A DNA stretch of 64,000 nt from an uncultured Nitrospiraceae bacterium (GTDB lineage: Bacteria > Nitrospirota > Nitrospiria > Nitrospirales > Nitrospiraceae): the NCBI GenBank assembly GCA_963706325.1, contig CAVPLT010000004.1, forward strand, positions 384,001-448,000, read 5' to 3'. The notes beneath the pieces are model-generated. The model was not told the origin of the DNA, ran no database searches, and saw nothing but the letters and a program-made list of their open reading frames with translations. The position numbers and the translations under genes were made by a program. Of this stretch, positions 23,156 to 62,448 are shown piece by piece; position 1 is the stretch's first letter; each line of letters starts with the position of its first letter.

Positions 23156-23599
23156 CTATTTCTGCGTCGTTTCAAGCCGTAGGCGTTCCGCTGACCATGT
23201 AACACCTGCGAGCGGTTCATTGCGCCGGTCCACTGCTTGAATGGCAACCGTCACACTTTGCGCGTTTGCAAGTTGAGTCGTGAGGAGCTTCAGTGCTTGT
23301 GTGACGTCGATGAGTAGGGTGGGCAGGCGTCGTGGTCCCGACATGGTCGGTCGTACCGCCACGATACCTGCCGAGCCCAGGACCAGAATCTGTTGCTCCT
23401 CCGTAATGGTCGTCACGCGAAGCTTGAGTGGTCGATCTCCCGGCACGGTCACCCCTTCGAGCACCAGCCGAATTCCGGTCGCGTGCTGCCATTGTGCCGG
23501 CAGCGCGACGGTGAAGTGATGTTTCTCCTCGTCCGCATGGCTCGGCATGGAAAGACTCGTTATGAAACTCAACACCAGGAAAACCACTCGCCTCGTCAT
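23156..23599 (-). CDS. Exported hypothetical protein resembling a PPO C-terminal domain
   Basis: Sec signal peptide; ATGA overlap with the tyrosinase stop; LVLEGV...LGS...IDVT pattern. Confidence 0.75.
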   Translation of the reverse strand: MTRRVVFLVLSFITSLSMPSHADEEKHHFTVALPAQWQHATGIRLVLEGVTVPGDRPLKLRVTTITEEQQILVLGSAGIVAVRPTMSGPRRLPTLLIDVTQALKLLTTQLANAQSVTVAIQAVDRRNEPLAGVTWSAERLRLETTQK

Positions 23600-25032
23600 T
23601 TGTCCTCTCGTTCGACCTCCGCAATCGTGAGGTGGACGTCCTTTGCCCGTACAGGGATCACCGTTGGATTCTGATTCTTGTCCTTTCGTTCCACGAAGGC
23701 AAGCCGCACAGGACCCTGAGCACCGCTGAGCGCATCGAGCATCGGACGAGACAGATTGACGGCCATGTTGCGGGCCTGCTTGGATGTATGCCTTCCCGCA
23801 CGATCATTGAGAACGACTGGGAATGTGCCGAGGTATCCCTTGCCGCTTGGGCCTTCGTCGGCCTTGGCGGTTTCCGGCGTGGCGTATAACCGATAGACCA
23901 CACTTTTATCCAGCGGTAACGAGAGGTCGGTCAGGTGCAACCTGGCCCGTCCCCCCTGTTCGAGGATTCTGGAAATTTTTTCACGCGTCTGGCGAACCAC
24001 CTTGAGCGTTTTACTGACACGCCAATCGGTGCGAATGACCAACCAGTCGAGGAGGCAAGGCAGCAGTTCAAAAAACCGGGATGGTCCGTAGGTGTACCGT
24101 AACTGATGTTCGTGGTTGAGCACCTGCGCCGCCGTTATCGAGCGCCAAACTTTGTTCTCGTCGTAAAAGGTCCATGTGAGATTGAGGAAGGCGGGGTCGG
24201 TTGAATTCGTGTGGGTGGACGAGGCTTTGTTCCAGTCCGACCAGATCTTGTCCACGTTGGAATGGTGCGCGTAAAAGATGGGATCTTTGCCTGCCGAATC
24301 GAAGAATCCCATGTCGCCGCCCACGTCGACGTGTACCGACCCGTGCGGCGCTCCTTCAGGGATGCCGCTGCCTCCTGCCGTCCCGCCGAATTCAGCGAAG
24401 GTTCCGGCCGTGAGCGCGGCGTCCATCACTGAATCTCCGACATCCTCGTCTGGAATTTCGTCCGTCGGGCTCATGAGCCGCGTTCCGTTCCAAAGCGGGT
24501 TGCTGTTGTCGTTCGGCGACGTGTAACCGGCCGGCATGGTGCGGTGAGCAGGGCTATCCCAATCCCAGTAGGGGAGCCGGAAGTTCATGTCGCCGATGAG
24601 TTTGCCGAGAATGCGCTCGTGAAAATATAGATAGGCCCGGTGCCAGGCGAAAAACTGCCAGGAGAAATGCACCTGGGTACCTTCACCGCAATACCAACAA
24701 TGGATGTTCGCCTGGCGTTTGAATCCTCGCGGATCGCCGGGATCACTCGTATCCAGTGCCCGCATGGCCTGATAAGCTTCTTTTAGTTTCTTGAGTTCAT
24801 CCGCACTGAGGGTTGAGGCGGGGCGCCGGGGAAGGATCATGCGGCAATCCTTGCGCCAGCGTTTGGCGGTCCCAGGGTTGCCTGGCGGTTCGCACACAGC
24901 CAGGGCGGATTGAGGCCACGTCAGCCCGCCGAACAGGCCGAAGCTGAGCGCCCCGGCACCCAACCCGAGTTGCTGAAGAAACCTCCTGCGCGAAGGCAGG
25001 GGTGTGATTGCGCTCTCTTCACGTCCAGACAT
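23596..25032 (-). CDS. Tat-exported tyrosinase/polyphenol oxidase (type-3 copper)
   Basis: SRRRFL Tat signal; CuA HCWYC/QVH/WHR; LPYWDW; CuB PHGSVH and DPIFYAHHSNVD. Confidence 0.93.
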   Translation of the reverse strand: MSGREESAITPLPSRRRFLQQLGLGAGALSFGLFGGLTWPQSALAVCEPPGNPGTAKRWRKDCRMILPRRPASTLSADELKKLKEAYQAMRALDTSDPGDPRGFKRQANIHCWYCGEGTQVHFSWQFFAWHRAYLYFHERILGKLIGDMNFRLPYWDWDSPAHRTMPAGYTSPNDNSNPLWNGTRLMSPTDEIPDEDVGDSVMDAALTAGTFAEFGGTAGGSGIPEGAPHGSVHVDVGGDMGFFDSAGKDPIFYAHHSNVDKIWSDWNKASSTHTNSTDPAFLNLTWTFYDENKVWRSITAAQVLNHEHQLRYTYGPSRFFELLPCLLDWLVIRTDWRVSKTLKVVRQTREKISRILEQGGRARLHLTDLSLPLDKSVVYRLYATPETAKADEGPSGKGYLGTFPVVLNDRAGRHTSKQARNMAVNLSRPMLDALSGAQGPVRLAFVERKDKNQNPTVIPVRAKDVHLTIAEVEREDK

Positions 25033-25344: not shown

Positions 25345-26823
25345 ATGCCCGAATATCTTCCGCCCGGTGTCTTCATTCAAGAGAGCAATCCAGGCGATCA
25401 GCCCATCGGCGGCGTCGCCACGAGTACGGTCGGCTTCTTCGGCATTGCGGAGCGAGGCCCAACGGCGCCGGCTCTCCTCACCAGCTTCAACGAGTATCGC
25501 GGGATGTTCGGCGGTTACGTGCTCGAGGGGAACCAGGATCGCTATTTAGCCTATGCGATCGAGGGCTATTTTCTGAATGGCGGTCGGCGCTGTTACGTCC
25601 GGCGAGTGGTTGCGAATGGAGCCACCGCAGCCGCCACAACCCTCGATGCAAAACTCAAGGTCGCCGCCGTCGGATCTGGGTTATGGGGAAACAGGGTGGC
25701 GGTCGTAATCGCCCCGTCGGCACTCATCCAATGTTTTAGGCTCACGGTGCGTTATTGGGAGCCAGATACACCCTGGTCAGAGGAACCGACAGTGGAGGAA
25801 ATCTACGATAACCTGTCGGCAGACGAAGCCTCGACAGATTTCTACGAAAAGCGAGTCAACGGCGTATCTCGACTCGTGACGATTGAAAGGGCCGGCGTCG
25901 CCGTGCGTCCGGCAGATGTCACCGCAGTCTGGTTAACGGGTGGAAGCGATGGGCAGGCCTACGCCGAAGACGATTTCGAAGCTGCTCTGGATTCTTTTGC
26001 GAAGCTGGAAGACATCGCCATCTTGTGTTGTCCTGAGGAGAGTAGAGTTCCTCGCATCACCGGGGACATGCTGGATCAATGTGAATTTCTGAAGGATCGT
26101 TTCGCCATTCTTCAGGCCCCATTGTTGGTCAGCGATCTCATGGCGCATCGGCCTCCGCGCGATTCACGCTATGGCGCCTACTACCTGCCATGGCTGCGCA
26201 TTCGACATGCCGGTACTGGAACGGAGAAACTGATTCCGCCCGGAGGTCACATTGCGGGCCTTTATGCTCGGACAGACAGGGAGCGAGGAGTGCACAAAGC
26301 CCCCGCCAATGAAACGCCTCGCGGTTTGCTGATAGATCCGCTCGACCCTGCGCGGGGCTTGGCTGGTTTGGTCACTACGGCGCAACAGGAGGGCCTCAAC
26401 TCGCGGGGCGTCAACGTGCTTCGATATTTTCCTGGAAGGGGAATTCTCCTGTGGGGGGCGAGGACGATGGCTTCCGACCCCCAGTGGAAGTATGTGAATG
26501 TTCGCCGTCTGGTCATCTTCATCGAAGCGTCTCTCAAGAAGGGTACGCGCTGGGTGATCTTTGAACCCAACGATGAAGCCTTGTGGAATCGTGCGCGCCA
26601 CAGTGTCAGCAACTTTCTCACGAGGTTGTGGAAAGACGGCATGCTACAGGGGCAGAAGCCGGAACAGGCATTTGTAGTCAAATGTGATCAAACGACGATG
26701 ACGCAAGCAGATCTCGAGAACGGCAGGCTTATCATGGTGATCGGCATCGCTCCGGTAAGGCCGGCTGAATTCGTCATGTTCAGAATCGGGCAGTGGGCGG
26801 GCGGTTCCGAAGTGACTGAGTAG
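25345..26823 (+). CDS. Contractile tail sheath protein (eCIS/phage type)
   Basis: EYLPPGVFIQE, YFLNGG..CYV, GVHKAPAN, WGART, YVNVRRL, VIFEPND, AP.RPAEFV.FRI. Confidence 0.93.
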   Translation: MPEYLPPGVFIQESNPGDQPIGGVATSTVGFFGIAERGPTAPALLTSFNEYRGMFGGYVLEGNQDRYLAYAIEGYFLNGGRRCYVRRVVANGATAAATTLDAKLKVAAVGSGLWGNRVAVVIAPSALIQCFRLTVRYWEPDTPWSEEPTVEEIYDNLSADEASTDFYEKRVNGVSRLVTIERAGVAVRPADVTAVWLTGGSDGQAYAEDDFEAALDSFAKLEDIAILCCPEESRVPRITGDMLDQCEFLKDRFAILQAPLLVSDLMAHRPPRDSRYGAYYLPWLRIRHAGTGTEKLIPPGGHIAGLYARTDRERGVHKAPANETPRGLLIDPLDPARGLAGLVTTAQQEGLNSRGVNVLRYFPGRGILLWGARTMASDPQWKYVNVRRLVIFIEASLKKGTRWVIFEPNDEALWNRARHSVSNFLTRLWKDGMLQGQKPEQAFVVKCDQTTMTQADLENGRLIMVIGIAPVRPAEFVMFRIGQWAGGSEVTE

Positions 26824-29170: not shown

Positions 29171-29605
29171 ATGGGAGAGGTCGATACAGCCCCGGAAGTT
29201 GCCGCCAAGGTCATCGAAGATCTCACGGCGTTGGAGGTGGATCCGGCCAAATGCGAGCGTCTCTATAAGGCCGCGCTGGTGCAGTCCAAATCAGGCACAA
29301 CCTATCGTATGTTGGCCAAGGTGGCCACGACCGGAAAGGTGGATCTTGTCCACTACGGCTGTGATCTGGATGCAGATGGGAAACCGACGACGAAGTGGAA
29401 GATCAGGCGCATCCTTGAACAAGCTCCTGAACGATTCGACAAAGAGCTTGAGGCCATCAAGAAGGGAGTCACGGACGATGGTGAGGTTGTGCAGGGCGCA
29501 TGGGTGCACGATATGACCGGCCTCCCGGACGTGGCGGCACAGGGCACGAGTTTGGACGAGTGGTCTCGGAATACGATCGCGGAGGTTCGGAAGAAACCGA
29601 GCTAG
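29171..29605 (+). CDS. Conserved hypothetical protein
   Basis: RBS GGAGG, 144 aa, protein-like composition. Confidence 0.75.
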   Translation: MGEVDTAPEVAAKVIEDLTALEVDPAKCERLYKAALVQSKSGTTYRMLAKVATTGKVDLVHYGCDLDADGKPTTKWKIRRILEQAPERFDKELEAIKKGVTDDGEVVQGAWVHDMTGLPDVAAQGTSLDEWSRNTIAEVRKKPS

Positions 29606-29640: not shown

Positions 29641-30933
29641 TCAAAAACTCATGGCCGGAGAGCTTGGTGGCACGGGCGACGAGTCGGTTGCGGTCGCTGG
29701 TGAGGCAGTGATGACGACGGTCAATCGGCGGTGTGCGTCCCGTAGCGACCGTTCCACATCCGCGGGGGTATCCCCTCGTGCCACGAGAAATCCCAGATAA
29801 CGTGTCCCTTCCGGAAGGGGAACCAGTTCATCGCCAGGGTCTGCCGTGATCGTCAGTTCCTCGATTCCCGATACCGCCTTCGCGTCCACTTGCCCCCGCA
29901 CTTCATGCAGCCGGCCGCCGTATGGAATGGGGAGCATCATCACTCCCGCCGCCCGCTCTTGCCTGGTGAGGGGAGGGAGCGGCATCCGCAGCGCGTGGCG
30001 GAGGATCAGCTCTTCAAGCGACATCCCAGCTGCGAAGTCCAGCGTCCGGGAGCAGCGTCCCCCGATCGTTCGTGCCGCCATCTCAATGACCCACACCCCG
30101 TTCTGATTTACCCGAAATTCCCCATGTATCGGTCCTTCTCGGAGGTCGAGGGCCTCAGCTGTTCGACCGGCACAGGCGACAATGTTCTGCTGCACGTCCG
30201 AAGCGAGACGAGACGGAGTTACATAGATCGTCTCCTCGAAGTAGGGGCCGTCGAGCGGATCAGGTTTGTCGAACATCGCCAGAGGCTGGAGCACTCCGTT
30301 GGCGAGTAGTCCCTCCAGCGCGACTTCGATCCCCGGCACAAAATCCTCGACAAGAATCCACCGGGCCTGCTCATCGATTGCCGTCAGATCCAAGGTAACG
30401 AGGAGTGCGCCCACCCGACGGAACGCATGCACAAACTCCTCTTCGTCATTCGCGCGAATCACGCCGCAACTGCCGGAGAGGATCAGCGGCTTCACGACGC
30501 AGGGATAGACCACCTGTCGGGCGAACATCGTCGGATCACCATCGAGAGGGAAAACGGCATGGTGCGGGACGGGAATGCCATGTGCCGACAGCAGCTCGCG
30601 CATCCGGCGCTTATTTCCCGCTGCAGTCACAGACGCGATGGAGTTGTGAGGCAATCCGAGCGCCTCTGCCACGGCCGCGGCGATGACGGCGGTGACATCG
30701 TTCACTCCAATCACCGCATCGATCGGGTGACGCCGAGCAAATTCGACCGTGGCTCGTGCAGCTGCCTGCGGATCTCGAATATCCAACGCTAAGACATTGC
30801 CCGATAAGTCAGGCTGGGCGTCCGACACCCGATCCGTTCCAATAGTCACAGCGACATCAGTGCGGCGGGCTGCCTCGATGAACGCCTCTGCGCGGTAGGT
30901 GCGTGCTGGCAGGAGAAGGAGAACTCTCGACAT
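29641..30933 (-). CDS. ATP-grasp domain protein (L-amino-acid ligase-like)
   Basis: NK..MR..L...GIPVP, YPCVVKP..LSGS.GV, LVEDFVPG.E, HGEFRV, IEMAAR.IGG. Confidence 0.9.
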   Translation of the reverse strand: MSRVLLLLPARTYRAEAFIEAARRTDVAVTIGTDRVSDAQPDLSGNVLALDIRDPQAAARATVEFARRHPIDAVIGVNDVTAVIAAAVAEALGLPHNSIASVTAAGNKRRMRELLSAHGIPVPHHAVFPLDGDPTMFARQVVYPCVVKPLILSGSCGVIRANDEEEFVHAFRRVGALLVTLDLTAIDEQARWILVEDFVPGIEVALEGLLANGVLQPLAMFDKPDPLDGPYFEETIYVTPSRLASDVQQNIVACAGRTAEALDLREGPIHGEFRVNQNGVWVIEMAARTIGGRCSRTLDFAAGMSLEELILRHALRMPLPPLTRQERAAGVMMLPIPYGGRLHEVRGQVDAKAVSGIEELTITADPGDELVPLPEGTRYLGFLVARGDTPADVERSLRDAHRRLTVVITASPATATDSSPVPPSSPAMSF

Positions 30934-30996
30934 AGTTTGCGACACCAGTGAATCGTCCGAAAAAAGAGCATATGGCGTATAGAGACGAACGACGCT

Positions 30997-31698
30997 TCAT
31001 GACCGACGCACGGTTGCCGCGCGTGTCTTATGAAACGCTTCTAACTGATTATTGGCCTCGATGATGATGCCTAATTTTTGCACCACGGCGCGCACCTTGT
31101 CGCCGGGTATGGCGTAATAGCCCTCATCATCTCCGAGTCCGGTATAGACGCGGTTGCCGATACAACCAAAACTGGTGGCCGTTTGTCCCGATTGCAATGA
31201 TTCCGGCAGCACGGCGCAGGTCGGCCGTCCCATCGTCGCGCCACCGCCGGCCACGCCCGCAGACTGTGCGGCCTCCGCCAGCAGCATCAGCTGCTTGACG
31301 GTTCCGCGGACCAATACCACGTCGGGCGCGAAGGTGGCTTTCGTGAGCGGCGCATAGATGGCCACATGAAACGTCTTCTGTCGACGCGGGATCATCGGAA
31401 TATCTGCCATCGTGAGATACTGCATGCCCACCATGGTCTGTACCAGACCGTTGAGCTCCGTTGCGACCTGCGGAGGCAGTTCCACACCATGGGTATGGGC
31501 TCCGACCGGACAGGTATAGTGATCCGAGGCTTCCGTGTAGAAAACCTGTCCCTCAGCCGCCAACTTCCAATAACCGCACCCTGCCGGCGCCGGCGTGGCG
31601 ACGTGCGGAATGCCGACCGGAGCGGCATCCCGAAACGCGATCGCGACGGCCGGTAGTTGTAAACCCAAGAGTTCTTGTATCTGCGTGCCTTGTGTCAT
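30997..31698 (-). CDS. DUF169-family Cys-rich protein
   Basis: PAVAI.F, GC, CPVG, PDVV, PTC, SFGC.GNR motifs. Confidence 0.85.
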   Translation of the reverse strand: MTQGTQIQELLGLQLPAVAIAFRDAAPVGIPHVATPAPAGCGYWKLAAEGQVFYTEASDHYTCPVGAHTHGVELPPQVATELNGLVQTMVGMQYLTMADIPMIPRRQKTFHVAIYAPLTKATFAPDVVLVRGTVKQLMLLAEAAQSAGVAGGGATMGRPTCAVLPESLQSGQTATSFGCIGNRVYTGLGDDEGYYAIPGDKVRAVVQKLGIIIEANNQLEAFHKTRAATVRRS

Positions 31699-31912
31699 CA
31701 GCTCAACTTCCACCTGTCGTTCCCCCTCTCCACTGTATGTGACTCCATCCGAACGTTGGTTTAGTTTGATGTGCGCAGAGGTCGCTCAAGAGGGCCTGCA
31801 TGAATCGACGTCGAAGGAACTTGCATGCACTCTCCCGCACCGGTCTCCTGAGCACCTCTCGCGCCTCCGTGGAGTGGGAGCAGGGTCGCTGCCTCCTCTG
31901 CCCGGCATCCTG

Positions 31913-33433
31913 TTAGATCTCCCCATGCCCTTTCGTCACCAGCGGTCTGAACTGTCGGGTCGTCGGCTCGGCACAACAGAACCAGGATTCGGTCAAGCGA
32001 GGCGGCTTCTGACGGTCAGGCTGGCGCGTGATGGTCCGGGTCGATGAGCGCGGGGGACGGCCAGCCATCTCGTCGGCAACCGCCCTGATACGATTAAAGA
32101 TCAAGACGGCATCGTCTTCTTCCTTGTCGCCGGCTTCGACGATGGCGTTTACGGCCTGCTGTAGTCGGTCCATCCGCTCATCCGGGTGTGTCCATAGATA
32201 CTGGAATCCCGCCTGATCCAACGGCCCGAGAAACCGCTGTACGTCGGACTTCGCGAGCAGCGCCGATCCAGGCGGAATCAACAGGCGAATACTCAATTGG
32301 ACAGGGTCGGTCGCATCGATCAAGTCGTGCAGGTCCAGCATATCTAACATATGAAGATAATCGTCCAAACTGGTCCAGGGGGTGAAGGCCACCAGTGAGG
32401 GGCGCAATGAGAGGTCGGCCTCGCGTAGAAAGCCGAGCGTCGTGGTGATGTCAGCCCCTGTATGCCCCTTGTGGAGTGTCTCCAACACATGGTCACTGAA
32501 TGACTCCACTGCGGAGATGACGAACAGGCATCCTTGCGCGGCAAGTTCCGGTATGAGGGATCGGCGCTTTAGCAGGTGCTCGATCTTGGCGGTGACATCG
32601 AAGGTCAGGCGGGGAAACTCCGCATGCATGGCGCGAACGATGCTCATGGAGTGCCCAGGACCGTTCAGAAAATCCGGGTCGCCGAAGGTGATGTGTGTGG
32701 CGCCCGATCGCACCTGGCGTCGAATGTCTTCCAGGACGACGGGCTCCGGGACGAGGACGAAGCGCCCGTCATAGACCGGCACGATTGGGCAGTGGAGACA
32801 ATGGTGGAGGCATCCGCGACTGGCCTCGACATAGCCGACCAACCGTTCCGTGCCGTTGTGCGCGAGTTGCGCATATTGGTCTAACATCGGCAATCCACTG
32901 CGACTCGGAATCGGCGGTGGGGTGCTCGAGGTCGTTGCCGTGTAGACACGTTGCAATGAGGGAGCGGTGATCCGCTGTTGTGAACTGACCCCATTGAGAT
33001 GGTTGATCGTCTGTTCACAATCGAGGGCCTCAATCAGCGAGACCAACGGCAGATCGTACTCGCCGCCCACGACAGAATCGGCGAGGTGCTGGAGCAGGTA
33101 TTCCCCATTGATGGAAGCGTACAGCCCATAAAAACAGATATGGCAGGGCGGATTGATCCTGCGGATCAGCTCGGCGACCCGCACCCCAAGCCGGAGCGCC
33201 GTGTGCATGGGCACCGAGATGCCGACAAACCGCGCCAACCGAAAGGCTGACTCGTCGATGCTGTCCACGGCGATATCGAGGCCGACCGGCGCAAATCCGG
33301 CTTGTTCGAGAAATCCGATCGGCTGGGCGATGCCAAGGGGTTGATGACCCAGCTCGTAGCAGGAGACGAGCATGATCGCGCCCGGTTGTCTCAGCAACCG
33401 CCGTTCTGCTGCGCTGTCCGCGATTCGTCCCAT
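31913..33433 (-). CDS. CUAEP/CCAEP-tail radical SAM protein
   Basis: N-terminal SCYELGHQP, EASRGCLHHCLHC (CxxxCxxC), FGDPDFLNGP, C-terminal ESWFCCAEP; start approximate. Confidence 0.88.
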   Translation of the reverse strand: MGRIADSAAERRLLRQPGAIMLVSCYELGHQPLGIAQPIGFLEQAGFAPVGLDIAVDSIDESAFRLARFVGISVPMHTALRLGVRVAELIRRINPPCHICFYGLYASINGEYLLQHLADSVVGGEYDLPLVSLIEALDCEQTINHLNGVSSQQRITAPSLQRVYTATTSSTPPPIPSRSGLPMLDQYAQLAHNGTERLVGYVEASRGCLHHCLHCPIVPVYDGRFVLVPEPVVLEDIRRQVRSGATHITFGDPDFLNGPGHSMSIVRAMHAEFPRLTFDVTAKIEHLLKRRSLIPELAAQGCLFVISAVESFSDHVLETLHKGHTGADITTTLGFLREADLSLRPSLVAFTPWTSLDDYLHMLDMLDLHDLIDATDPVQLSIRLLIPPGSALLAKSDVQRFLGPLDQAGFQYLWTHPDERMDRLQQAVNAIVEAGDKEEDDAVLIFNRIRAVADEMAGRPPRSSTRTITRQPDRQKPPRLTESWFCCAEPTTRQFRPLVTKGHGEI

Positions 33434-49818: not shown

Positions 49819-50796
49819 CTAAATCCTCGGTTGGTGGATCGCGTCGATCAAATGTTTGGGCTCAACGGTGGTATTACGCATTTGTGCTTGGAGCACATTG
49901 CTGCCTGGCGGCACGCTGTAGGTCAACCAGACATTCCCTCCAATGATCGATCCTTTACCGATGGTTATGCGGCCTAGGATTGTCGCGCCTGCATAGATCA
50001 CTACGTCGTCCTCGACGATCGGATGGCGGGCGTTGCCTTTGAGCAGCATGCCATTGTCACCTTCCTGAAATCGTTTTGCGCCGAGGGTGACGGCTTGATA
50101 GAGCCGCACGCGCTCGCCGATGATCGTGGTTTCGCCGATTACGACGCCGGTGCCGTGATCGATGAAAAAATAGCCTCCGATGGTCGCGGCCGGGTGAATG
50201 TCGATCCCCGTTGTGGAATGCGCGATATCGGAGATGAGACGCGCCGGCAGGCGCGCGCCCAACTCGTAGAGCGCGTGCGCGACGCGGTAGTAAATGACGG
50301 CGGTCATGCCGGGATAACAAAGCAGAATTTCGGAAGAACTGGTGGCCGCGGGATCTCCCTGGTAGGCCGCTTGCAAATCAGTGAAGAGCCGCGCACGAAT
50401 GGTCGGGAGCTGCGCCGCGAACTTGCTCGTGATGTCGATGGCCTTCTGTATCGAGGGGGCCTCGTCCTGCTCATCCTGTGCCGATATGAAGAGGAGTCCC
50501 CGGCGAACTTGATCCTGCAACATACCCAGTGTCAGGTGTAATTGGTCGCCGACAAAAAAGTCGATGTTCGACTCATTCACGTCCGATCGGCCGTAATGAC
50601 TGGGGAACAGGACGGCGCACACACCATCCAAGACTTCCATCAATGCTTTGCGGGACGGCAATTCACGCATACGGCCTTGATGGCGCACATTATGCTCGAC
50701 TTCACGCGAGTGCCGCAGCTCTTCCACGACCTGGTCGATATTCCAGGTCGATGGCGTTGCCGCCAGAGGTTGAATCGAGTTCCGGTCCATGAACAT
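49819..50796 (-). CDS. cysE: Serine O-acetyltransferase (EpsC/SrpH type)
   Basis: GDPAA, CYPG, TGIDIHP, FIDHGTGVVIGET, RHP hexapeptide repeats. Confidence 0.93.
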   Translation of the reverse strand: MFMDRNSIQPLAATPSTWNIDQVVEELRHSREVEHNVRHQGRMRELPSRKALMEVLDGVCAVLFPSHYGRSDVNESNIDFFVGDQLHLTLGMLQDQVRRGLLFISAQDEQDEAPSIQKAIDITSKFAAQLPTIRARLFTDLQAAYQGDPAATSSSEILLCYPGMTAVIYYRVAHALYELGARLPARLISDIAHSTTGIDIHPAATIGGYFFIDHGTGVVIGETTIIGERVRLYQAVTLGAKRFQEGDNGMLLKGNARHPIVEDDVVIYAGATILGRITIGKGSIIGGNVWLTYSVPPGSNVLQAQMRNTTVEPKHLIDAIHQPRI

Positions 50797-50824
50797 TCTG
50801 CCCTTTCAGTCCAGCCTGTTCGGC

Positions 50825-52603
50825 CTAATATCTCTTGAGTTGATGCAGGGCACCCACTAAGGCGTCAATTTCATCGTGTGTGTTGTAGAAAGCCAGCGAG
50901 GGGCGCACCGTGCCCTCCAATCCGTACCGCCGTACTGCCGGTTGGGCGCAGTGATGACCCGCACGGACTGCGATGCCATGTTGGTCCAGATGCCGGGCGA
51001 CTTGTTCAATAGAAAGGCCTTCCATTACGAAGGACAGAACGCTGGCCTTTGAGGCCGCGGTCCCGATAGGGCGTAGACCCCGAACCGACGAGAGGGCGTC
51101 AGTGGCGTACAGGAGCAACTCGTGTTCGTAGGCTGCGATGGCAGGCATCCCTACCTGGCTCAGGTAGTCGATGGCGACTCCAAGACCGATGACTTCGGCG
51201 ATAGCCGGCGTGCCCGCCTCGAATTTCTGAGGACTGCTTTGATAGGTCGTTTTTTGAAAAGACACATCCTTGATCATATTCCCACCGCCCTGCCAGGGAG
51301 GCATGGCTTCGAGCAGGTCGGCCTTCCCGTATAGCACGCCGATTCCGGTCGGTCCGAAGATCTTGTGGCCTGAAAACGTAAAAAAATCACAGTTCATTGC
51401 CCTGACGTCGATTGGCATGTGGGGCGTCGATTGCGCGCCGTCCACCAAGACGGGCACTCCCTGCGCATGGGCCATCGCAATCAGCTGTTCGACAGGGTTG
51501 ACGGTCCCCAAGGCATTGGACACTTGTGTGATGGCCACCAATTTGGTACGAGGGCCCAGGAGAGCTGCGAACTCATCGAGCAGCAATTCGCCTGCATCGT
51601 TGATCGGCGCGACCCGAAGCGTTGCGCCGGCCTGCTCTGCCAGCATTTGCCAGGGTACGATGTTCGCGTGATGTTCCATCGCAGTGAGGAGGATTTCATC
51701 ACCTCGGCCGACGTGAGCCCGCCCATAAGTCTGCGCCAACAAGTTAATGGCTTCGGTGGTCCCCCGAGCAAAGACGATCTCCTTCGAATCCGCAGCGCCG
51801 ATGAATCGCCGCACCTTGTCTCGTCCGCCTTCGTACAAATCGGTCGAATGTTGCGCCAAGGTGTGGGCGCCCCGGTGGATGTTGGAGTAGTCCCGGCTGT
51901 AAAATTTTGACGTGGCGTCGATTACGGCCTGCGGTTTCTGTGTCGTGGCTGCATTGTCCAGCCAGATAAGCGGTTTCCCGTTTACGTGGCGTTGCAACAG
52001 CGGAAAGTCCCGTCTGATGGCATCGATGTTCAGCGAAGATAGATTCAACCCATGCTTTGGAACGGGCGTAGCCTGCGGTGCTCTATGCGTGGCTCCATGA
52101 GATCCGCGCAGGAAATAGAAATCCGGGGTAAACAGGTCCTCATGGTGCTGCGAAGCAAATCCGAGGTCGGTGCTTTTTGCCCAATAGGGATCGGTGTGAC
52201 CGTTGCGTTCCCCATGTGGCTGGACGGGTGACGAGGCATGTCTATGGGTCTCGCCGCCGCCGTTGCATCGTGGCTCGCCGAAGGGATGGGTTTCGCTGGA
52301 GTTGTGGTCATGCCCACCCGATCCTGTGCCGGACCCCGCTGCCAGGGGGCCTTGTAGTCCAGGGTGCACAGGGGGGTGGGTGTCTGGTGTCGCGGATGGA
52401 TAGCCACCAGCTAGGCCCGGATACTGCGGTGTGCCCGTTGGAACCGCGGAGGCAAAGCTTTCTTCCCTTATCCCGTGCTGAAGAGCCGTCGGGTGAGACC
52501 CCTCGGCTGATTCCGCAAAGAATTCGTTTGCTAGCTTGGTGAGCAGCTCTGTGCCGAATGGATCAGGGCCGATACCCGTCATATTGTCCGGTGCTTGTGT
52601 CAT
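50825..52603 (-). CDS. SufS-type cysteine desulfurase with a disordered N-terminal encapsulin-targeting domain
   Basis: LTKLANEFF motif, about 180 aa low-complexity N-terminus, LDNAATTQKP, FSGHK (PLP Lys), RAGHHCA. Confidence 0.93.
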   Translation of the reverse strand: MTQAPDNMTGIGPDPFGTELLTKLANEFFAESAEGSHPTALQHGIREESFASAVPTGTPQYPGLAGGYPSATPDTHPPVHPGLQGPLAAGSGTGSGGHDHNSSETHPFGEPRCNGGGETHRHASSPVQPHGERNGHTDPYWAKSTDLGFASQHHEDLFTPDFYFLRGSHGATHRAPQATPVPKHGLNLSSLNIDAIRRDFPLLQRHVNGKPLIWLDNAATTQKPQAVIDATSKFYSRDYSNIHRGAHTLAQHSTDLYEGGRDKVRRFIGAADSKEIVFARGTTEAINLLAQTYGRAHVGRGDEILLTAMEHHANIVPWQMLAEQAGATLRVAPINDAGELLLDEFAALLGPRTKLVAITQVSNALGTVNPVEQLIAMAHAQGVPVLVDGAQSTPHMPIDVRAMNCDFFTFSGHKIFGPTGIGVLYGKADLLEAMPPWQGGGNMIKDVSFQKTTYQSSPQKFEAGTPAIAEVIGLGVAIDYLSQVGMPAIAAYEHELLLYATDALSSVRGLRPIGTAASKASVLSFVMEGLSIEQVARHLDQHGIAVRAGHHCAQPAVRRYGLEGTVRPSLAFYNTHDEIDALVGALHQLKRY

Positions 52604-52607
52604 CGCA

Positions 52608-53579
52608 TCACCTCTTCGGATAGACATAGTCGTGGTAGAAGTTCACGGATACGTTATCCAGACGCGCGATGGCATCTTCTGTTAGCACCGCGGTTGAGAA
52701 ATAGCGAGTCACGAGATGTGAGGCAATGCCGTGCTCATTCGTTCCCATGTAACGGATGGAAAGACCCGGCTCGACTTCTCCCGTTACCCCGCCCTTTTGC
52801 AAGCCGACGACACCTTGCTGTGGTTCACCGACGCGCAGGAGGAGGATGCTGGTCTTGCCTCCCTTGTCGATTTCCAATTTGTTGCTTGGAAGTAAGGGAA
52901 TTCCACGCCATGTTATGAATGGGGAACCGTAAAAATTCACGGTGGGTGGCGGCACCCCTCGCCTGGTCGCTTCACGACCGAAGGCGGCGATGGCTTTGGG
53001 GTGGGCAAGGAAGAACGCGGGTTTTTTCCATACCAGGCTTAGAAGCTCGTCGAAGTCATCTGGCGTGGGTGTGCCTTTCCGGCTGTTGATCCGTTGTCCC
53101 GGTACGACTTCCTTCAAGAGCCCGAAGTTCGGATGGTTAATCAACTCCCACTCCTCTTGCTCCTTAACCGCTTCTACCGTTAGCCGCACTTGCTCCCGCA
53201 ACTGATCGATGCGATTGCTGTACAGATCCGTCACGCGGGTATGGGTGTGGACAACTGTCTGGATACTACTGAGATGATATTCACGTGGATTCACTTCATA
53301 ATCGACAAAGGCCGTGGGGAGCTTTGGTTCGCCGCCATCGACGGTCAGCAGGTCGACATGCTCTTCTCCAAAATCGTTCTCCGGCGTGCCTTTAGCTGCC
53401 TTCGCCACCCTGTTCACGCGATAGACTCCGCCATCGATATTCACCCAGGGGAGAAGTTTGCGCAGCCACCGCGGGGTGATCTGCACCATCTGTGGAACTG
53501 TGACCGTCGCGGTTGCCAGATTGCGCGCTGCTTTGGCGCTCAAACTCTGTTGTCCTGATGCACTGGATCGTTCGCTCAT
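52608..53579 (-). CDS. Family 2A encapsulin shell protein (SrpI-like)
   Basis: AARNLAT, ITPRWL.KLLPW, GGVYRVNR, PREY.LS, RV.DLYS, E.ELIN...FGLL, PTPDD.DELL. Confidence 0.93.
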   Translation of the reverse strand: MSERSSASGQQSLSAKAARNLATATVTVPQMVQITPRWLRKLLPWVNIDGGVYRVNRVAKAAKGTPENDFGEEHVDLLTVDGGEPKLPTAFVDYEVNPREYHLSSIQTVVHTHTRVTDLYSNRIDQLREQVRLTVEAVKEQEEWELINHPNFGLLKEVVPGQRINSRKGTPTPDDFDELLSLVWKKPAFFLAHPKAIAAFGREATRRGVPPPTVNFYGSPFITWRGIPLLPSNKLEIDKGGKTSILLLRVGEPQQGVVGLQKGGVTGEVEPGLSIRYMGTNEHGIASHLVTRYFSTAVLTEDAIARLDNVSVNFYHDYVYPKR

Positions 53580-53706
53580 CGTGTCGTCCTTTCCATGGTG
53601 TTGGGCAGGTGCCCTGAAATCGTTCACTCACTACGCTTCTTGGCCCACGTCCTCACGTGATGCCCTCCAAGAATCCGGCATGGTCTGGGGCGGCTCGGTC
53701 GCCCGA

Positions 53707-54222
53707 TTATGGCTTCATCCCGTGCCCAGGAATAATCGTGAAGACACGCCGGTCGAAGCGCAGGATTCCGCTGTGTATGAGATGTTTTCTGGCAAAATAG
53801 CAGGCGTCGTTGATGAGAAATTTCGCCGGAAAATTATCCACTCCATCGATCACCACCGAATAATTACGAACAAGATCCAAAGCGTTGGCGGCCATAAACC
53901 GATCCTCAAACAGCACCACTTTGACGTCCGGATTCAGTGCCTCGATCTTTTCCTTGGCCGAGAGGACCTTGGGGCGTCCCACATCGGGCGTGTGATGAAT
54001 GACCTGTCGCTGAAGATTGGAGAGATCAACGACGTCGTTGTCGATCAGTCCGATGGTGCCCACGCCGGCTGCAGCCAGGTACAGAGCTGCCGGTGAACCG
54101 AGGCCACCGGCGCCGACGATCAGAATGCTTGCCTGCGAGATTTTGTTTTGCCCCTTGCCTCCCACCTCCGGAAGCAAGATGTGGCGGCTATATCGGGTGA
54201 TTTGTTCGTCGAAAAAATTCAT
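53707..54222 (-). pseudogene. C-terminally truncated MoeB/ThiF adenylyltransferase
   Basis: RYSRHILL, GAGGLG, SNLQRQ, DG.DNF present; stops at 171 aa, before the CYRC Zn motif and the active-site Cys. Confidence 0.75.
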
Positions 54223-54283
54223 ATGTCGCTTTCATCTGCATGCCAGTCATCAGCCTGGAGCTGACGGCTGAGAGCGTTCCTAC

Positions 54284-55213
54284 TTAGATATTGAAATATT
54301 TCTCCATGCTGATGTATCGCTCGCCCGTATCGCAGATCACCGTCACCACGCTTTTACCTGGACCGAGTTCCTGTGCCAGCTTCTGGGCGGCATAGACGTT
54401 TGCGCCGGACGAGATGCCTCCCAGGAGGCCCTCTTTCTTTGCCAGGAGCTTGGCGGTCTGGTGGGCCTCATTGTCGGTGACCGTGATCACCCGATCGAGG
54501 ATCTTCTGATTCAACACCTGCGGGATAAACCCCGCGCCGATGCCCTGAATTTTGTGGGGGCCTGGCGCGCCGCCTGAGAGAAGCGGAGATCCGCTCGGCT
54601 CCACCGCAACGATGTGAATGTGTGGATTGCGTTCCTTGAACACTTCCCCGCAGCCGGTGATGGTCCCGCCTGTGCCCACCCCCGCGACGAAGGCGTCGAA
54701 CCGGCCGTCCAGGGCCTCCCAAATCTCCACGGCCGTCGTCTGCCTATGCGCAGCCGGATTAGCTGGATTGGAAAACTGGTCGGGCATGAAGCAAGAGGGA
54801 TGCTGCGACACAATCTGCTCCGCTTCCTTGATAGACCCTTTCATGCCATCGGCGGCGGAGGTCAGCACCAATTGCGCGCCATACGATGAGAGGAGGCTCG
54901 CGCGCTCCGCGCTCATGCTCTCCGGCATCACCAGGATCACCGGATACCCACGGACTGCCGCGATGAGCGAGAGGCCGATCCCGGTATTTCCGCTGGTCGA
55001 CTCGACGATCGTCGTGCCGGGTTTGAGCCGACCGCTTCGTTCCGCTTCACTGATCATGCTGAGGCAGATTCGGTCCTTGACGCTTCCCCCAGGGTTGGAG
55101 AATTCGACCTTGGCATAGATAGTCGCCCCGCCCGCTGGCGAGAGCCGGTTCAGTCGAATCAGCGGCGTGCGACCGACCAGGTGTGTAATGTTCGGTTGTG
55201 CTCGCTGCGTCAC
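54284..55213 (-). CDS. cysK: Cysteine synthase A
   Basis: NPGGSVKDR, TSGNTG, GVGTGGT, PHKIQGIGAG, DTGERY. Confidence 0.96.
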   Translation of the reverse strand: MTQRAQPNITHLVGRTPLIRLNRLSPAGGATIYAKVEFSNPGGSVKDRICLSMISEAERSGRLKPGTTIVESTSGNTGIGLSLIAAVRGYPVILVMPESMSAERASLLSSYGAQLVLTSAADGMKGSIKEAEQIVSQHPSCFMPDQFSNPANPAAHRQTTAVEIWEALDGRFDAFVAGVGTGGTITGCGEVFKERNPHIHIVAVEPSGSPLLSGGAPGPHKIQGIGAGFIPQVLNQKILDRVITVTDNEAHQTAKLLAKKEGLLGGISSGANVYAAQKLAQELGPGKSVVTVICDTGERYISMEKYFNI

Positions 55214-55410
55214 CGGCCACCGCCCATGTAAAAGAGAAATTCCAGACGGTCGCCAGGCCGCAGCGGTGTAGAGCGCAACTGATCACGTTCGATCAGCGTC
55301 TCGTTCAATTCTACGGCGACCATCTGCGGGTCGATTTGTTTCGCCTTCAACGCGTCCAGTACGACTGACCCCTGGATCTCTTCTGATTTTCCATTGATCT
55401 CAACGAACAT
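55210..55410 (-). CDS. thiS: ThiS-like sulfur carrier protein
   Basis: INGK, VAVELN, GDRLE, C-terminal GGGR; GTGA overlap with cysK. Confidence 0.88.
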   Translation of the reverse strand: MFVEINGKSEEIQGSVVLDALKAKQIDPQMVAVELNETLIERDQLRSTPLRPGDRLEFLFYMGGGR

Positions 55411-55447
55411 AACCTCGGTTCTCCAATCGGTAGGGAGTGCCGTCCAT

Positions 55448-55867
55448 TCAAATGAACAACGAGGTCTCGGCGCCGGCTGTCAGTGCCAGAATCGCCGGCA
55501 ATCCCATGACGCTGTCAACCTGCTTCGTGACGGCGTCCGCGCTCACACCCATGTATTCAAGGCCCGCGCTGCAGGCCACCAGTCGGAAGTCACCGACCGC
55601 TCGGGCTTCCTGGAACATCTCAGACACGCGCGGGACTTTCTTTTCCTTCAGCAGCCGACGGACTTGCTCCGCAGATGCCTCATGCTCGGATGAAAAGTCG
55701 ACCTCATCGATTCGTCCTTCCGCCAGTTTACGAATCGTCCAGAAGAGCAGCACCACCGTGACGTCTTTTCCCATCGCGGCCGCAGTCAGTCCCAACGTGC
55801 CGACCTGGTGGAGGGTGTCGTAGGTGGCGTTGTGCGCAAAGATCACGAAACGTGGTTTCTGTGTCAT
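55448..55867 (-). CDS. DsrE/DsrF-like sulfurtransferase-family protein
   Basis: AAAMG..V.V..FW, LVACS, C-terminal LFI; ATGA overlap with the regulator. Confidence 0.8.
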
Positions 55868-56946
55868 GACGCAACCTTCTGCGAGCCGAGCCGTCCGTAC
55901 CGGATCAGCCGATCGCGGACGATATTGCGGCTGATGCCGAGGAGTCGGGCGGTCCGGAGTTGATTCCGATCGCAATACTCGTACGCGGCATGAAAAATCG
56001 TGTCATCAATCAGTTGATACAGCTGAGGCCGTTCTTCCTGGAACAACTGCTGCAAGGTATCGGTGAGGGCAACCAGTGACCGGCCGGCCGTCTCTGCCCC
56101 GACTGCGACGTGAGGGCGTGAGCTTGGCAAACGCAGATCCGCCGGGCTGATTTCTGTGCCCGGGCAGACTACCAACGCGTGATGAATCGTATTTTCAAGC
56201 TCGCGGATATTGCCCGGCCAAGGGTAGGTAAGCAGTCGGTCTGTGGCTTCCGCCGAGAGTCGGGCATCTGTAAAACCCAGTCGGGGCCCGTATATCGAGA
56301 GGAAATAGTGAGCCAACGGCAGAATGTCGCCGGGACGCTCTCGCAACGGCGGGAGGTTCACGGTGGCGACATGCAGTCGATAGTATAGATCCTCGCGGAA
56401 CCGTCCTGCCGCCACGGCTTCGTCGAGGTTCACGTTCGTCGCCGCGATCAATCGCACATCGATGGCAATCGGTTGGCGTGATCCGATGCGTACCACCTCC
56501 CGCTCCTGGATCACCCGCAGCAGTTTGGCTTGAAGCGTCAGCGGGAGATCGCCGATTTCATCCAGAAACAACGACCCGCCCTCGGCGGTTTCGAACCAGC
56601 CGGCCTTGGTGGTGATGGCGCCGGTAAAAGCGCCGCGTTCATGACCGAAGAGTTCGCTTTCCATCAGGGACTCAGTGATCGCCGCGCAGTTGACCGCCAC
56701 GAACGGACCGGTGCGTCGAGCACTGAGTTCGTGAATGTGGCGCGCGATCAGCTCCTTGCCGGTGCCGGTTTCGCCGATAATGAGCGCCGTGGCCTGGCTG
56801 GGGGCAATCCGCTGAACCAGCTCCAGGAGGGCCTTTGATTTGTCGTCTTCGAAAACCAGGCAACTCGCCCTGATCGAAAGGGCGAGCGTTGTCGGGTCGG
56901 AAGCGGCTAATACCTTTAGCGCGCGTTGGCTGTTCGTCGTGGTCAC
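55864..56946 (-). CDS. Sigma54-dependent activator without a sensory domain (SfnR-like)
   Basis: L+[53 protein letters not shown]. Confidence 0.9.
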
Positions 56947-56962
56947 GTTGTCCTTTCTGGCC

Positions 56963-58030
56963 CTATTCGACCGGCTCGGGAAACACGCGAAGCGACTTCG
57001 GCCGGATGAACACACGTTCGCCGGTGCTGAGGGCAAGATCCCGCCATTGTTCCTGGCTGACCTCCCCTTCGATTACCTCGCCGTTGTCGGTCCGTATCAT
57101 TTCCAATCGGGCGACGGCTCCCACTGGTTGTATTCGACCGACGGTGGCCTCGATGGCCCCGGTTCCATCGGAGAGGCGGTGGAGATCGATTTCATGCGGC
57201 CGCACATAACCGATCGCCGGCCCATCAGAAATGCCGCCTTGCTCGCGAAGCGCCAGGTCGAGATCCCCGACCTGCACCCGGCCTTCATGGACCCGGCCGT
57301 GAAACAGATTCACGCCGCCCAGAAAGTCATAGACGAACGGGCTGGCTGGATGTTCATAGACCTCCTCGGGAGTTCCGATCTGTTCGATACGTCCCTTATT
57401 CATGACGACCACCCGATCCGCCACCTCCAGGGCCTCGTCTTGATCATGGGTCACGAAGACGCTGGTCACGTGGAGGTTCGTGTGAAGTCGCCGGAGCCAG
57501 CGCCGGAGTTCCTTGCGGACCTTGGCATCGAGCGCGCCGAAGGGCTCATCGAGCAAGAGGACCGTCGGCTCGACGGCCAATGCGCGCGCGAGGGCGACTC
57601 GTTGGCGTTGCCCTCCAGATAGTTGTCGTGGATAACGATCTCCCAACCACTCCAGCTGCACAAGTTTGAGTAATTCACGCACCTTGGCGTCGATGGTGTC
57701 CTTGGGTGGCCGCGTGGCTCTCGACCTCACCCTCAGACCGAACGCGACATTCTCAAAAACGGTCATATGACGAAACAGGGCGTAATGCTGAAAGACGAAC
57801 CCCACGCCACGTTCGCCAATATGGCGATCGGTGACTTCCTGATCGTTGAGCAGAATCGAACCGGTCGTCGGGCCCTCCAAGCCGGCCAAGATTCTCAGCA
57901 GGGTGGTCTTGCCGCATCCCGAAGGCCCAAGCAGGGCAATCAGCTCACCGGTGTTGACGCGCAGATTGATCTCCTGCAGCGCGGTAAAGGTTCGGAAGGT
58001 CTTCGTCACGTTGCGTACTTCGATGCTCAT
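56963..58030 (-). CDS. cysA: Sulfate/thiosulfate ABC transporter ATP-binding protein
   Basis: [39 protein letters not shown]-terminal TOBE. Confidence 0.96.
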
Positions 58031-58902
58031 GGACGGTGCTCCTTCTGTTCAGCCGACGAAGTCCATTCCACCAGGCTCTTGGCGGCCAAGGTGACCACAG
58101 ACAGCAACGCCAGCAGTGAGGCGACTGCAAAGGCGGCCACATCGTTGTATTCGTTGTAGAGAATCTCGACGTGGAGCGGCATCGTATTGGTTTCGCCGCG
58201 AATATGCCCGGATACGACGGACACCGCTCCGAATTCTCCCATCGCTCGTGCATTGCAAAGAATGACGCCGTAGAGCAGGCTCCATTTGATTGACGGGAGC
58301 GTCACGCGCCAGAAGGTTTGCCAGCCGGTTGCGCCTAGCACGAGCGCCGCTTCTTCCTCGTCCTTGCCTTGCGCTTGCATGAGCGGAATCAGTTCGCGTG
58401 CGATAAAGGGAAACGTGACAAAGATGGTAGCCAGCACGATGCCCGGCACCGCGAAGATGATCTTGATATCGTGCGCGGCGAGCCAGGGCCCGAGGGCACC
58501 TTGCAAGCCAAAGAGCAGCACATAGATCAATCCCGCGACCACCGGTGACACGGAGAAGGGAAGATCGATCAAGGTGATAAGACCTGCTTGCCCCAAAATT
58601 CGAATTTGGCAATGGCCCATGCGGCCGAAATGCCGAAGACGACATTCAGCGGGAGGGCAATGGCCGCCGCCAAAAGCGTGAGCTGAATGGCGGCGATCGC
58701 ATCCGGGTCTTGAAACGAGGCCAGGTAGGTGCCAAGGCCATGCTTCAGCGCTTCGAACAGGATGGCCGCGAGCGGCACGAACAGAAATAGGCCCAGGAAT
58801 GCCAACGAAACCACGATTAGCCCCAGCGGACGAGGGCCGGCTCGGCCCGGTCGAGGCGATACGGGGAACTCTTTTCTCTAGGCTCAAGACACCGGTGGTC
58901 AT
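58027..58902 (-). pseudogene. cysW: Sulfate ABC permease CysW, frameshifted (three apparent -1 indels)
   Basis: AEPALVRW / [13 protein letters not shown]...AKFEFWGK / [12 protein letters not shown]...GEFGAV lie in different frames; shifts near 58847, 58822 and 58580. Confidence 0.88.
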
Positions 58903-58919
58903 ATTCCCTCCAAGTCCGT

Positions 58920-59756: not shown

Positions 59757-59781
59757 GATCTCTCCTTCTGATGCCTGTTGC

Positions 59782-59804
59782 GCCGGTCACTGGAGGTGAC
59801 CGGC
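59782..59804 (-). other. Intercistronic 9-bp stem-loop after sbp
   Basis: GCCGGTCAC-tggag-GTGACCGGC. Confidence 0.5.
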
Positions 59805-59832
59805 ATTCATCACTACGACCTGCCGGCTGCGC

Positions 59833-60864: not shown

Positions 60865-61041
60865 GATCTCCTTGGTTCCGACTGAGGTATGTTTGTTCGA
60901 TCAGGTCCACGACCTGTGTACAGTCTCCTGATCGAAGGTGTTCGAGAGAAAAAGGTCGCTTCGATGGTCAACAGTGATCTGGCGTGCACATGCCTGAGCA
61001 TGAGCGGGCATTGAATAGAATCGTTGCCCGATTGAGTCGGT

Positions 61042-62076: not shown

Positions 62077-62121
62077 GGTGATACAGACTCCTGTGATGCG
62101 TAAAAAAATATCCGTCGCTGA

Positions 62122-62424: not shown

Positions 62425-62448
62425 GGAACTCCTTTCTTCCTCGAATCC

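Follow-up and report, generated by a model that had tools for sequence, protein, structure and literature searches.

Judged by sequence, the only characterised family close to the radical SAM enzyme described here is ArsL, which belongs to the arsQML arsinothricin cluster. ArsL yields methylthioadenosine (MTA) and a 3-amino-3-carboxypropyl (ACP) radical from SAM, and its C-terminal tail binds As(III) (bioRxiv 2024.02.01.577332); it has been described as the sole radical SAM enzyme with a CxxxCxxC motif whose cleavage of SAM yields an ACP unit. Mass spectrometry showed that arsenite is held by all three tail cysteines of ArsL (bioRxiv 2026.04.29.721666), and the same preprint cites each single Cys-to-Ala change in the tail as abolishing activity. 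An "MCCA" tail mutant, which by our own reading is a CC-only tail, was the best catalyst on methylarsenate according to a review (PMC13598754). The ArsL gene cluster has a narrow range.

A second family, defined by a C-terminal CUAEP or CCAEP tail, is already catalogued as NF040546. It was termed uncharacterised in a description (bioRxiv 2022.07.06.499078), the accessible part of which makes no mention of a ligase partnership or of accessory genes, and we found no description of a pathway for this family in the literature.

Gene layout of the locus

The window, a stretch of 64,000 nucleotides from an uncultured Nitrospiraceae bacterium, contains a minus-strand run of three genes for a CUAEP/CCAEP-tail radical SAM enzyme, a DUF169 protein and an ATP-grasp enzyme of the L-amino-acid ligase type (Table 1). 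The intergenic gaps measure 199 nt between the radical SAM and DUF169 genes and 63 nt between the DUF169 and ATP-grasp genes. The DUF169 gene starts with a GTG at 31713, with an alternative ATG at 31698, and the start of the ATP-grasp gene was taken to be the ATG at 30933; the GTG at 30945 given by the ORF finder adds four codons compared to close homologues of 430 aa. The three genes occur together in 35 of the 203 loci that bear the radical SAM gene, so the arrangement is not due to chance. Short contigs from four soil RNA runs cover all three genes, with one contig spanning the first gap, in data where contaminating DNA is possible and a transcript is not demonstrable. A scan for promoters and terminators gave signals no commoner than in shuffled sequences.

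Table 1. Features of the radical SAM, DUF169 and ATP-grasp locus, in window coordinates.
Feature	Coordinates	Strand	Description
CUAEP/CCAEP-tail radical SAM enzyme (NF040546)	31913..33433	-	506 aa; N-terminal B12-binding-like domain; CxxxCxxC motif (C208/212/215); CC pair C486/C487 in the C-terminal tail
WFCCAEP tail motif codons	31961..31981	-	codon of the second Cys replaced by TGA (selenocysteine) in roughly half of the homologues
DUF169 (PF02596) protein	30997..31713	-	238 aa; optional accessory protein with four invariant Cys
L-amino-acid-ligase-type ATP-grasp enzyme	29641..30933	-	430 aa; R-x-[IM]-G-G-x-C motif with an invariant Cys

Family assignment and kinship with ArsL

The radical SAM enzyme scored 667.6 bits against NF040546, above the curated cut-off of 500, and 311.5 bits against the ArsL model NF040542, below the cut-off of 450, with the next-best model at 33 bits or less. 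It carries both the CxxxCxxC motif and the C-terminal C[C/U]AEP tail that membership of NF040546 demands, and as a CC-tailed member it displays no protein-level difference from the family. Tails of the two types are about equally common, with 60 C-TGA and 55 CC tails in 124 loci. All of the 66 family members aligned have C486.

In a quick version of a phylogenetic tree, in which P0093 forms a long branch, the family and ArsL made up one branch (SH-aLRT 100) relative to seven other B12-type radical SAM proteins, and ArsL paired with a CCAEP-tailed protein with a support of 92. Among 67 family-conserved positions, 47 are common to at least two of the three ArsL sequences. These results, together with the profile scores, ORF coordinates and motifs, agree with the sequence-only reading, which had reported three codirectional minus-strand genes, placed the enzyme in the CUAEP/CCAEP-tail family with selenocysteine variants and considered it related to ArsL.

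The same comparison also separates the two families. Although the architecture and the CC pair are shared with ArsL, the other 20 of the 67 positions differ, several of them next to the cluster motif or within the barrel (H214, P216, P253, D254 and K283), so that the family may act on another substrate or even cleave SAM in another way. A long insertion precedes the tail in the CUAEP/CCAEP family, and none of the 66 aligned members has a third conserved tail cysteine, as in the CCxxC of ArsL, but the CC pair only. Moreover, the locus in the window has no adjoining arsM, arsQ, arsR or ars operon, and a ligase partner is found instead; an ATP-grasp gene does lie near the Bacillus ArsL locus, at only 24% identity.

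A co-inherited ATP-grasp ligase

The radical SAM enzyme and the ligase are a conserved core, co-inherited across several bacterial phyla. Among the genomes sampled, the ligase gene accompanies the radical SAM gene in 24 of 25 carriers from the Acidobacteriota and in 34 of 36 from the Chloroflexota, often at an unlinked position; three of five further genomes likewise have it unlinked. The ligase thus looks like an obligate partner of the enzyme.

The ligase contains the domains PF13535 (ATP-grasp_4), LAL_C2 and ATPgrasp_N and, like the L-amino acid ligases BL00235, BacD and RizA, retains the catalytic Glu and Arg residues; it scored under every curated cut-off. Its closest solved structure is that of BL00235 (full-length match, E 7e-71), which is listed as a producer of Met-Gly and Met-Met (PMC6920838). 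Unlike BL00235 and BacD, the ligase family has a cysteine at a substrate-loop position, in the motif R-x-[IM]-G-G-x-C of the active-site loop, where it was found in 85 of 85 copies. In the alignment, this residue is located two positions past Trp332 of BacD, a pocket residue.

Radical SAM-ligase fusions were considered as Rosetta-stone evidence and rejected: five apparent fusions (P0276, P0277, P0280, P0282 and P0283) look like frameshift or gene-calling artefacts, because the tail is out of frame in all five. One further fusion, P0139, is not garbled and, as a single unverified sequence, was given little weight. The predicted complex of enzyme and ligase had a score of 0.00, which was weighed neither for nor against an interaction.

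Accessory and neighbouring genes

The DUF169 protein scored 88.4 bits against PF02596 (gathering cut-off 27), and all 36 of the homologues aligned retain its four cysteines. Its fold had no confident counterpart: Foldseek yielded nothing at E 0.001, the best VIA Z was 5.2, and a search of the Atlas returned only DUF169 clusters. Genes for DUF169 proteins were identified near 54 of the 203 loci and are thus optional, so that from the three-gene unit suggested by the sequence-only reading the coupling of the radical SAM enzyme to the ligase stands as the core, whereas DUF169 does not belong to it. Genes for the Fe-S helpers Nfu, Isc or YggX are near 79 of the 203 loci, and Nfu adjoins 7 of 10 unlinked ligases. 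A role for DUF169 as a strict substitute of Nfu/YggX was ruled out, since both were found together in six loci; DUF169 may plausibly act as an Fe-S or metal(loid) carrier.

Several other neighbours point to soft metals. Five family members are fused in frame to a MerB-like domain, MerT/CopZ-like selenoproteins are encoded in four planctomycete loci, and CpaM is found with HgcAB-like corrinoid proteins in five loci. The family resembles the SAO, MerB and HgcAB-like organometallic systems in its CC/CU motif and in the MerB-, SaoD-, MerT- and HgcAB-like genes that adjoin or are fused to a minority of members, but the genes of those systems are absent from the window and from most loci. The mercury-type neighbours are a small minority that probably arose by few independent events, and fused HgcAB proteins showed no mercury methylation in the organisms tested (PMC10087281). 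The survey of gene neighbourhoods identified no conserved exporter, metal transporter or metal regulator beside family members. Recurrent neighbours that handle amines or amino acids include a formyltransferase (15 loci), a PLP decarboxylase (6 loci) and NRPS genes (2 loci); HgcAB-like methylating proteins occur with NRPS genes in a minority of loci, and genes for cysteine desulfurase, IscU-like and SaoD/DsrE proteins in some. The loci with CpaM plus HgcAB-like proteins offer a parallel to ArsL plus ArsM.

Arsenic in particular is not supported by the gene context. As the sequence-only reading had already stated, no ars genes are present among the 48 window proteins scanned (own and other). 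Other contigs of the source genome do encode acr3/arsC and an arsM-like protein. The link to arsenic suggested by the sequence-only reading fared less well, as ars-type genes are near only 2 of the 203 loci, whereas the ArsL control locus has a full ars operon, and the three-cysteine tail of ArsL is not conserved. As a candidate partner, arsM was rejected, as it was not enriched (19/25 versus 82/126, p 0.36), and an ArsM-like methyltransferase with selenocysteine was enriched in carrier genomes but unlinked, which is probably a clade effect.

Discussion

We propose, with a probability of roughly 40% and largely by analogy to ArsL, that the ACP unit of SAM is transferred to a soft metal(loid) bound to the tail and that a dipeptide is then formed. 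The CC (or CU) pair would bind a thiol-loving metal or metalloid via two ligands, the [4Fe-4S] enzyme would split SAM into methylthioadenosine and the ACP unit, and joining of this unit to the tail-bound atom would create a methionine-shaped amino acid. As suggested by its family and conserved residues, the ligase may activate this metal(loid) amino acid and join it to a second amino acid, with the invariant cysteine helping to hold the substrate side chain. DUF169 here, and Nfu, Isc or YggX elsewhere, could deliver the cluster, repair it or act as metal carriers. The observed support consists of the genes, their motifs, the kinship with ArsL and the co-inheritance of enzyme and ligase. Trivalent arsenic, perhaps as methylarsenite, would be the likeliest single atom, although it accounts for less than half of the soft-metal(loid) proposal and is in itself rather unlikely, about as much so as mercury, antimony or another soft metal taken together. 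For methylarsenite, two ligands from the protein are enough.

In an unlikely but serious competitor, the enzyme would apply canonical radical SAM chemistry to an organic compound, perhaps the dipeptide made by the ligase in a reversed order of steps, and the CC/CU tail would serve as a redox shuttle, as in the CU tail of the thioredoxin-reductase type, or as an extra cluster ligand. ArsL binds SAM as ordinary enzymes do, so its odd cleavage lacks known determinants, and the 20 positions unlike ArsL, the insertion ahead of the tail and the lack of a conserved metal transporter or regulator all fit such chemistry, but every characterised close relative transfers ACP to a tail-bound atom, and the MerB-like fusions and metal-transport selenoprotein neighbours would have no obvious place. 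A shade less probable still is a transfer of ACP to sulfur or selenium, in which the tail would carry a persulfide, selenotrisulfide or small cluster that is reloaded by Nfu/Isc, much as the cluster of LipA that donates sulfur is restored by NfuA. The ligase would then receive homocysteine, selenohomocysteine or an oxidised derivative and turn it into a new small thiol or selenol dipeptide. The frequent Fe-S helper genes at the loci and beside unlinked ligases, the cysteine desulfurase, IscU-like and SaoD/DsrE genes, the in vitro coupling of the ACP species of ArsL to dithionite sulfur and the methionine preference of the nearest ligase are consistent with this route. Yet the conversion of SAM to homocysteine is close to circular, Fe-S helpers can be used by any radical SAM enzyme, the MerB-, MerT- and HgcAB-like partners point to metals, and the source genome has no match to selA and no selD over the cut-off.

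We consider it very improbable that the enzyme is a cobalamin-dependent methyltransferase that uses its N-terminal domain to methylate the tail-bound atom. In its favour are a weak match to PF02310 (28.5 bits), a predicted structure (pLDDT 93.5) with AprD4, OxsB and TsrM as the nearest folds, and His77, which is kept in 57 of 66 family members and absent from ArsL, but the PF02310 match falls under the Pfam cut-off of 32.1. In addition, 57 of 66 members carry a bulky residue (Tyr, Phe, His or Trp) just ahead of G103, and so does ArsL, whereas Gly is usual at this point of B12-binding domains, and separate genes for corrinoid methylating proteins adjoin the radical SAM gene in five loci.

Beyond ACP transfer to a metal(loid) at this locus, it is conceivable, if somewhat doubtful, that bacteria of soil and water have a widespread pathway, independent of ars genes, in which ACP is placed on a non-arsenic atom (selenium, mercury, antimony or sulfur) and the product is made into a dipeptide, which some lineages would methylate by an HgcAB-like corrinoid protein and load onto an NRPS. 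If such a non-arsenic pathway exists, it would extend radical SAM enzymes to a new carbon-heteroatom bond, yield natural products of a new class and give fused HgcAB-like proteins their first role. The mode of SAM cleavage and the atom alkylated bear on whether the chemistry of ArsL is ancestral and widespread, and the product may be an unrecognised bacterial dipeptide of organo-arsenic, -selenium or -metal type with relevance to element cycling. The near-fixed ligase partner of this sister family of ArsL, which is often a selenoprotein, therefore provides a defined two-enzyme system to reconstitute. The family is common in major soil phyla, with the radical SAM gene in about one sixth of the sampled Acidobacteriota genomes and about one quarter of the sampled Chloroflexota genomes.

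The module and its distribution

The sequence-only reading placed genes for a radical SAM enzyme, a DUF169 protein and an L-amino-acid-ligase-type ATP-grasp enzyme (hereafter ligase) on the minus strand of the window, and all three were found there (table below). The radical SAM protein belongs to an already catalogued family, the CUAEP/CCAEP-tail radical SAM (seleno)proteins (NF040546), within which it is unexceptional; it scored 311.5 bits against the ArsL model NF040542 (cut-off 450), with the next-best model at 33.

Positions of the features discussed (window coordinates unless a genome or locus is given)
Feature	Position	Strand	Details
Radical SAM	33433-31913	-	506 aa; NF040546 667.6 bits (cut-off 500)
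DUF169	31713-30997	-	PF02596 88.4 bits
ATP-grasp ligase	30933-29641	-	ATPgrasp_N + ATP-grasp_4 + LAL_C2 domains
144-aa protein	29171-29605	+	no Pfam or NCBIfam match
Phage-tail-sheath gene	25345-26823	+	no further tail gene among scanned neighbours
Tyrosinase-domain protein	23156-25032	-	twin-arginine-like N-terminus; overlapping 147-aa partner
Sulfur cluster	49819-63983	-	type 2A encapsulin, cysteine desulfurase-like cargo, ThiF, PLP cysteine-synthase-like enzyme, sulfate-type ABC genes
arsM-like gene, then radical SAM gene	G000:C7:67006-69298		window's own genome
CU-tailed enzyme cluster	L201:990-10637
CU-tailed enzyme cluster	L208:1066-9505

The module is real, conserved and uncharacterised, and its nearest named relatives are Nitrospira genomes. 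The window's own genome is 96% complete, and its single DUF169 gene is the one in the trio. In the window's phylum, 4 of 201 sampled genomes scored above the cut-off for the family; each of these falls within the window's taxonomic family (36 genomes), and the other three also carry the intact trio. The protein family is commoner elsewhere, with matches at E 1e-60 in 25/151 Acidobacteriota and 36/151 Chloroflexota genomes. The tails encoded at 124 loci were C-TGA (60), CC (55) or TGA-TGA (1), or were lost at a contig end (8), while 80 metagenome loci had CC (44) or C-stop (36). A search of the window's genome recovered no match to selA and none to selD over the cut-off, consistent with the CC (non-Sec) tail there.

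The radical SAM enzyme and the ligase form the core

When the same samples were searched with the ligase, a close orthologue (40-57% identity, leaving out a 32% match in genome G287) was identified in 24 of the 25 Acidobacteriota genomes with a family radical SAM gene (carriers) and in 5 of 126 non-carriers, including G228, a genome flagged as unpublished that affects only this count and the totals. In Chloroflexota, the corresponding numbers were 34/36 and 9/115. Fisher's p for the association, 6e-22, is overstated, since kin are not independent. The two genes were not within ~11 kb of each other in 12 of 24 Acidobacteriota genomes, and were at least 1 Mb apart on one contig in three; unlinked ligases were also seen in 3/5 further genomes and in 4/5 of another set. 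Such frequent separation argues that the pairing reflects co-inheritance, not mere linkage.

We surveyed by tblastn the neighbourhoods of 203 radical-SAM-bearing loci (2.38 Mb; 123 loci of at least 10 kb), which were picked by similarity, with five known duplicates or controls excluded, and counted irrespective of kinship. The ligase was detected at 99 loci, DUF169 at 54 and both at 35, followed by Nfu/Isc/YggX (79), aconitase-family (33), formyltransferase (15), MoaA (8), PLP decarboxylase (6), HgcAB-like (5), SaoD/DsrE (4) and MerT-like (4) proteins; DUF169 occurred together with Nfu or YggX at six. The core of the module is thus the radical SAM enzyme and the ligase, with DUF169 as an accessory: of the proposed co-occurrence of the trio, the enzyme-ligase pairing held across genomes, and DUF169 as a fixed member did not. 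The moaA loci span several phyla (e.g., L062, L097, L135, L137, L191), and one group of Chloroflexota (L150-L153) has the module next to lipoate and pyruvate-dehydrogenase genes.

Relationship to ArsL

A quickly built maximum-likelihood tree (50 proteins) joined the family with four sequences of ArsL, the characterised C-As bond-forming relative, on a single long branch (SH-aLRT 100), which excluded seven other B12-type radical SAM proteins encoded by the window's genome. ArsL paired with the CCAEP-tailed P0093 (92), itself a long branch; on this tree, ArsL is either the sister of the family or a lineage within it. Conservation in at least 85% of 66 family members defined 67 positions; 47 of these recur in two or more of three ArsL sequences, which bears out the suggested kinship, and the remaining 20 do not match, some of them next to the cluster motif. 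Three tests separated the window protein from ArsL, so it is not ArsL; it most likely works like ArsL.

Across the 66 aligned members, C486 is invariant, and the tail lacks a third conserved cysteine. Published statements conflict on whether two tail cysteines suffice: a review (section 5.1, PMC13598754) describes an 'MCCA' mutant as the best catalyst with methylarsenate, whereas work on ArsL (bioRxiv 2026.04.29.721666) found arsenite held by all three tail cysteines in mass spectra and cites a loss of activity when any one of them is changed to Ala. The AlphaFold model (pLDDT 93.5) suggests a docked tail, with residues 471-490 at a confidence of 87-89 after a looser linker. Its closest solved folds were AprD4, OxsB and TsrM, and no ArsL structure was among the structure-search matches.

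Arsenic and other soft metal(loid)s

Arsenic in particular, as named in the sequence-only reading, is unsupported by gene context. At the ArsL control locus there are genes for arsR, acr3, arsC, arsD, arsA and an aquaglyceroporin, and arsQML is described as a narrowly distributed ars operon that arsenite induces (PMC8552651), whereas family loci are nearly devoid of ars genes: acr3/arsC were found at 1/203 loci and an ArsM-like gene at 1/203, two loci in all. Nor was arsM enriched in Acidobacteriota carriers, with matches in 19/25 against 82/126 other genomes (p 0.36), or 11/25 against 74/126 over the cut-off (p 0.19). On contigs other than that of the window, the genome does encode acr3/arsC as well as an arsM-like gene that scores 240 bits (cut-off 263), which is common and uninformative. 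The radical SAM gene that follows this arsM-like gene resembles, we presume, ArsS, and the pair is probably an arsenosugar pathway. An ArsM-like methyltransferase with an in-frame TGA, unlinked to the module, was seen at L113-L120 and L122; such sub-cut-off matches occurred in 9/25 carrier and 3/126 other Acidobacteriota genomes, an excess that is probably a clade effect.

Pointers to a soft metal(loid) came from a minority of loci, all outside the window. In five protein clusters (P0011, P0286-P0289), an intact CCAEP enzyme is fused in frame to a MerB-like domain that retains the WCxxD and CxC motifs; these domains are 51-65% identical to that of P0011 and score 44-65 bits, under the cut-off, with MerB models. 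In planctomycete loci, a CU enzyme and DUF169 head a gene run with conserved in-frame TGA codons, which includes a MerT/CopZ-like protein and surrounds a PLP decarboxylase. The small TGA-codon genes downstream of DUF169 (L053, L056, L057, L060, L061, L068, L072) encode what are probably unannotated selenoproteins: one secreted, with a pair of adjacent TGA codons, one a small membrane protein, one a lipoprotein, and the MerT/CopZ-like protein.

Five loci combine the radical SAM gene with genes for CpaM and for an HgcAB-like corrinoid protein that exceeds the cut-off; MbtH-like and NRPS genes follow at two of them, and genes for SaoD/DsrE, IscU-like proteins and cysteine desulfurase are close by. 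Clusters with CU-tailed enzymes that combine such genes, or a divergent pyruvate-dehydrogenase-like pair (L201, L208, L217, L245, L067), are candidates for a methylated peptide with a 3-amino-3-carboxypropyl (ACP) unit on an atom X. By analogy, the enzyme and the HgcAB-like methylator may parallel ArsL and ArsM. Mercury methylation by fused HgcAB proteins was not seen in the work reported in PMC10087281, so the acceptor of the HgcAB-like proteins beside the family could be another atom.

Possible reactions of the module

The ligase profile matched BL00235 over its full length (E 7e-71), and BacD more weakly (2e-34). BL00235 is reported to make Met-Gly and Met-Met (PMC6920838). Methionine, too, is an amino acid with an ACP unit. 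The cysteine in R-x-[IM]-G-G-x-C, C294 counted from the ATG, is kept in 85/85 ligase copies and aligns two residues past BacD Trp332, which the same review names as a pocket residue; from this alignment, the invariant cysteine may bind a thiophilic side chain.

Our tentative reading, with a probability of about 0.4, is that ACP is transferred to a soft metal(loid) held by the tail and that the product is then ligated; within it, arsenic would be the likeliest single atom, though with no more than about half of that probability. NF040546 has been termed uncharacterised, and CU motifs tied to heavy-metal binding (bioRxiv 2022.07.06.499078). Canonical radical SAM chemistry is unlikely, if the least so of the alternatives. 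Transfer of ACP to sulfur or selenium is about as unlikely. Methylation by cobalamin is very improbable.

No description of a pathway joining the radical SAM enzyme and the ligase was found in the literature covered, from which most subscription journals were absent. This analysis contributes the pairing of enzyme and ligase at the level of genomes, arsenic controls that came out negative, the conserved cysteine of the ligase, and the occurrence of family members in MerB, MerT and HgcAB/NRPS contexts.

Other genes in the window

In 27 loci of the window's phylum, the gene for the 144-aa protein converges on that of the ligase, and it may mark the insertion site. The sulfur cluster lies 16 kb from the trio.
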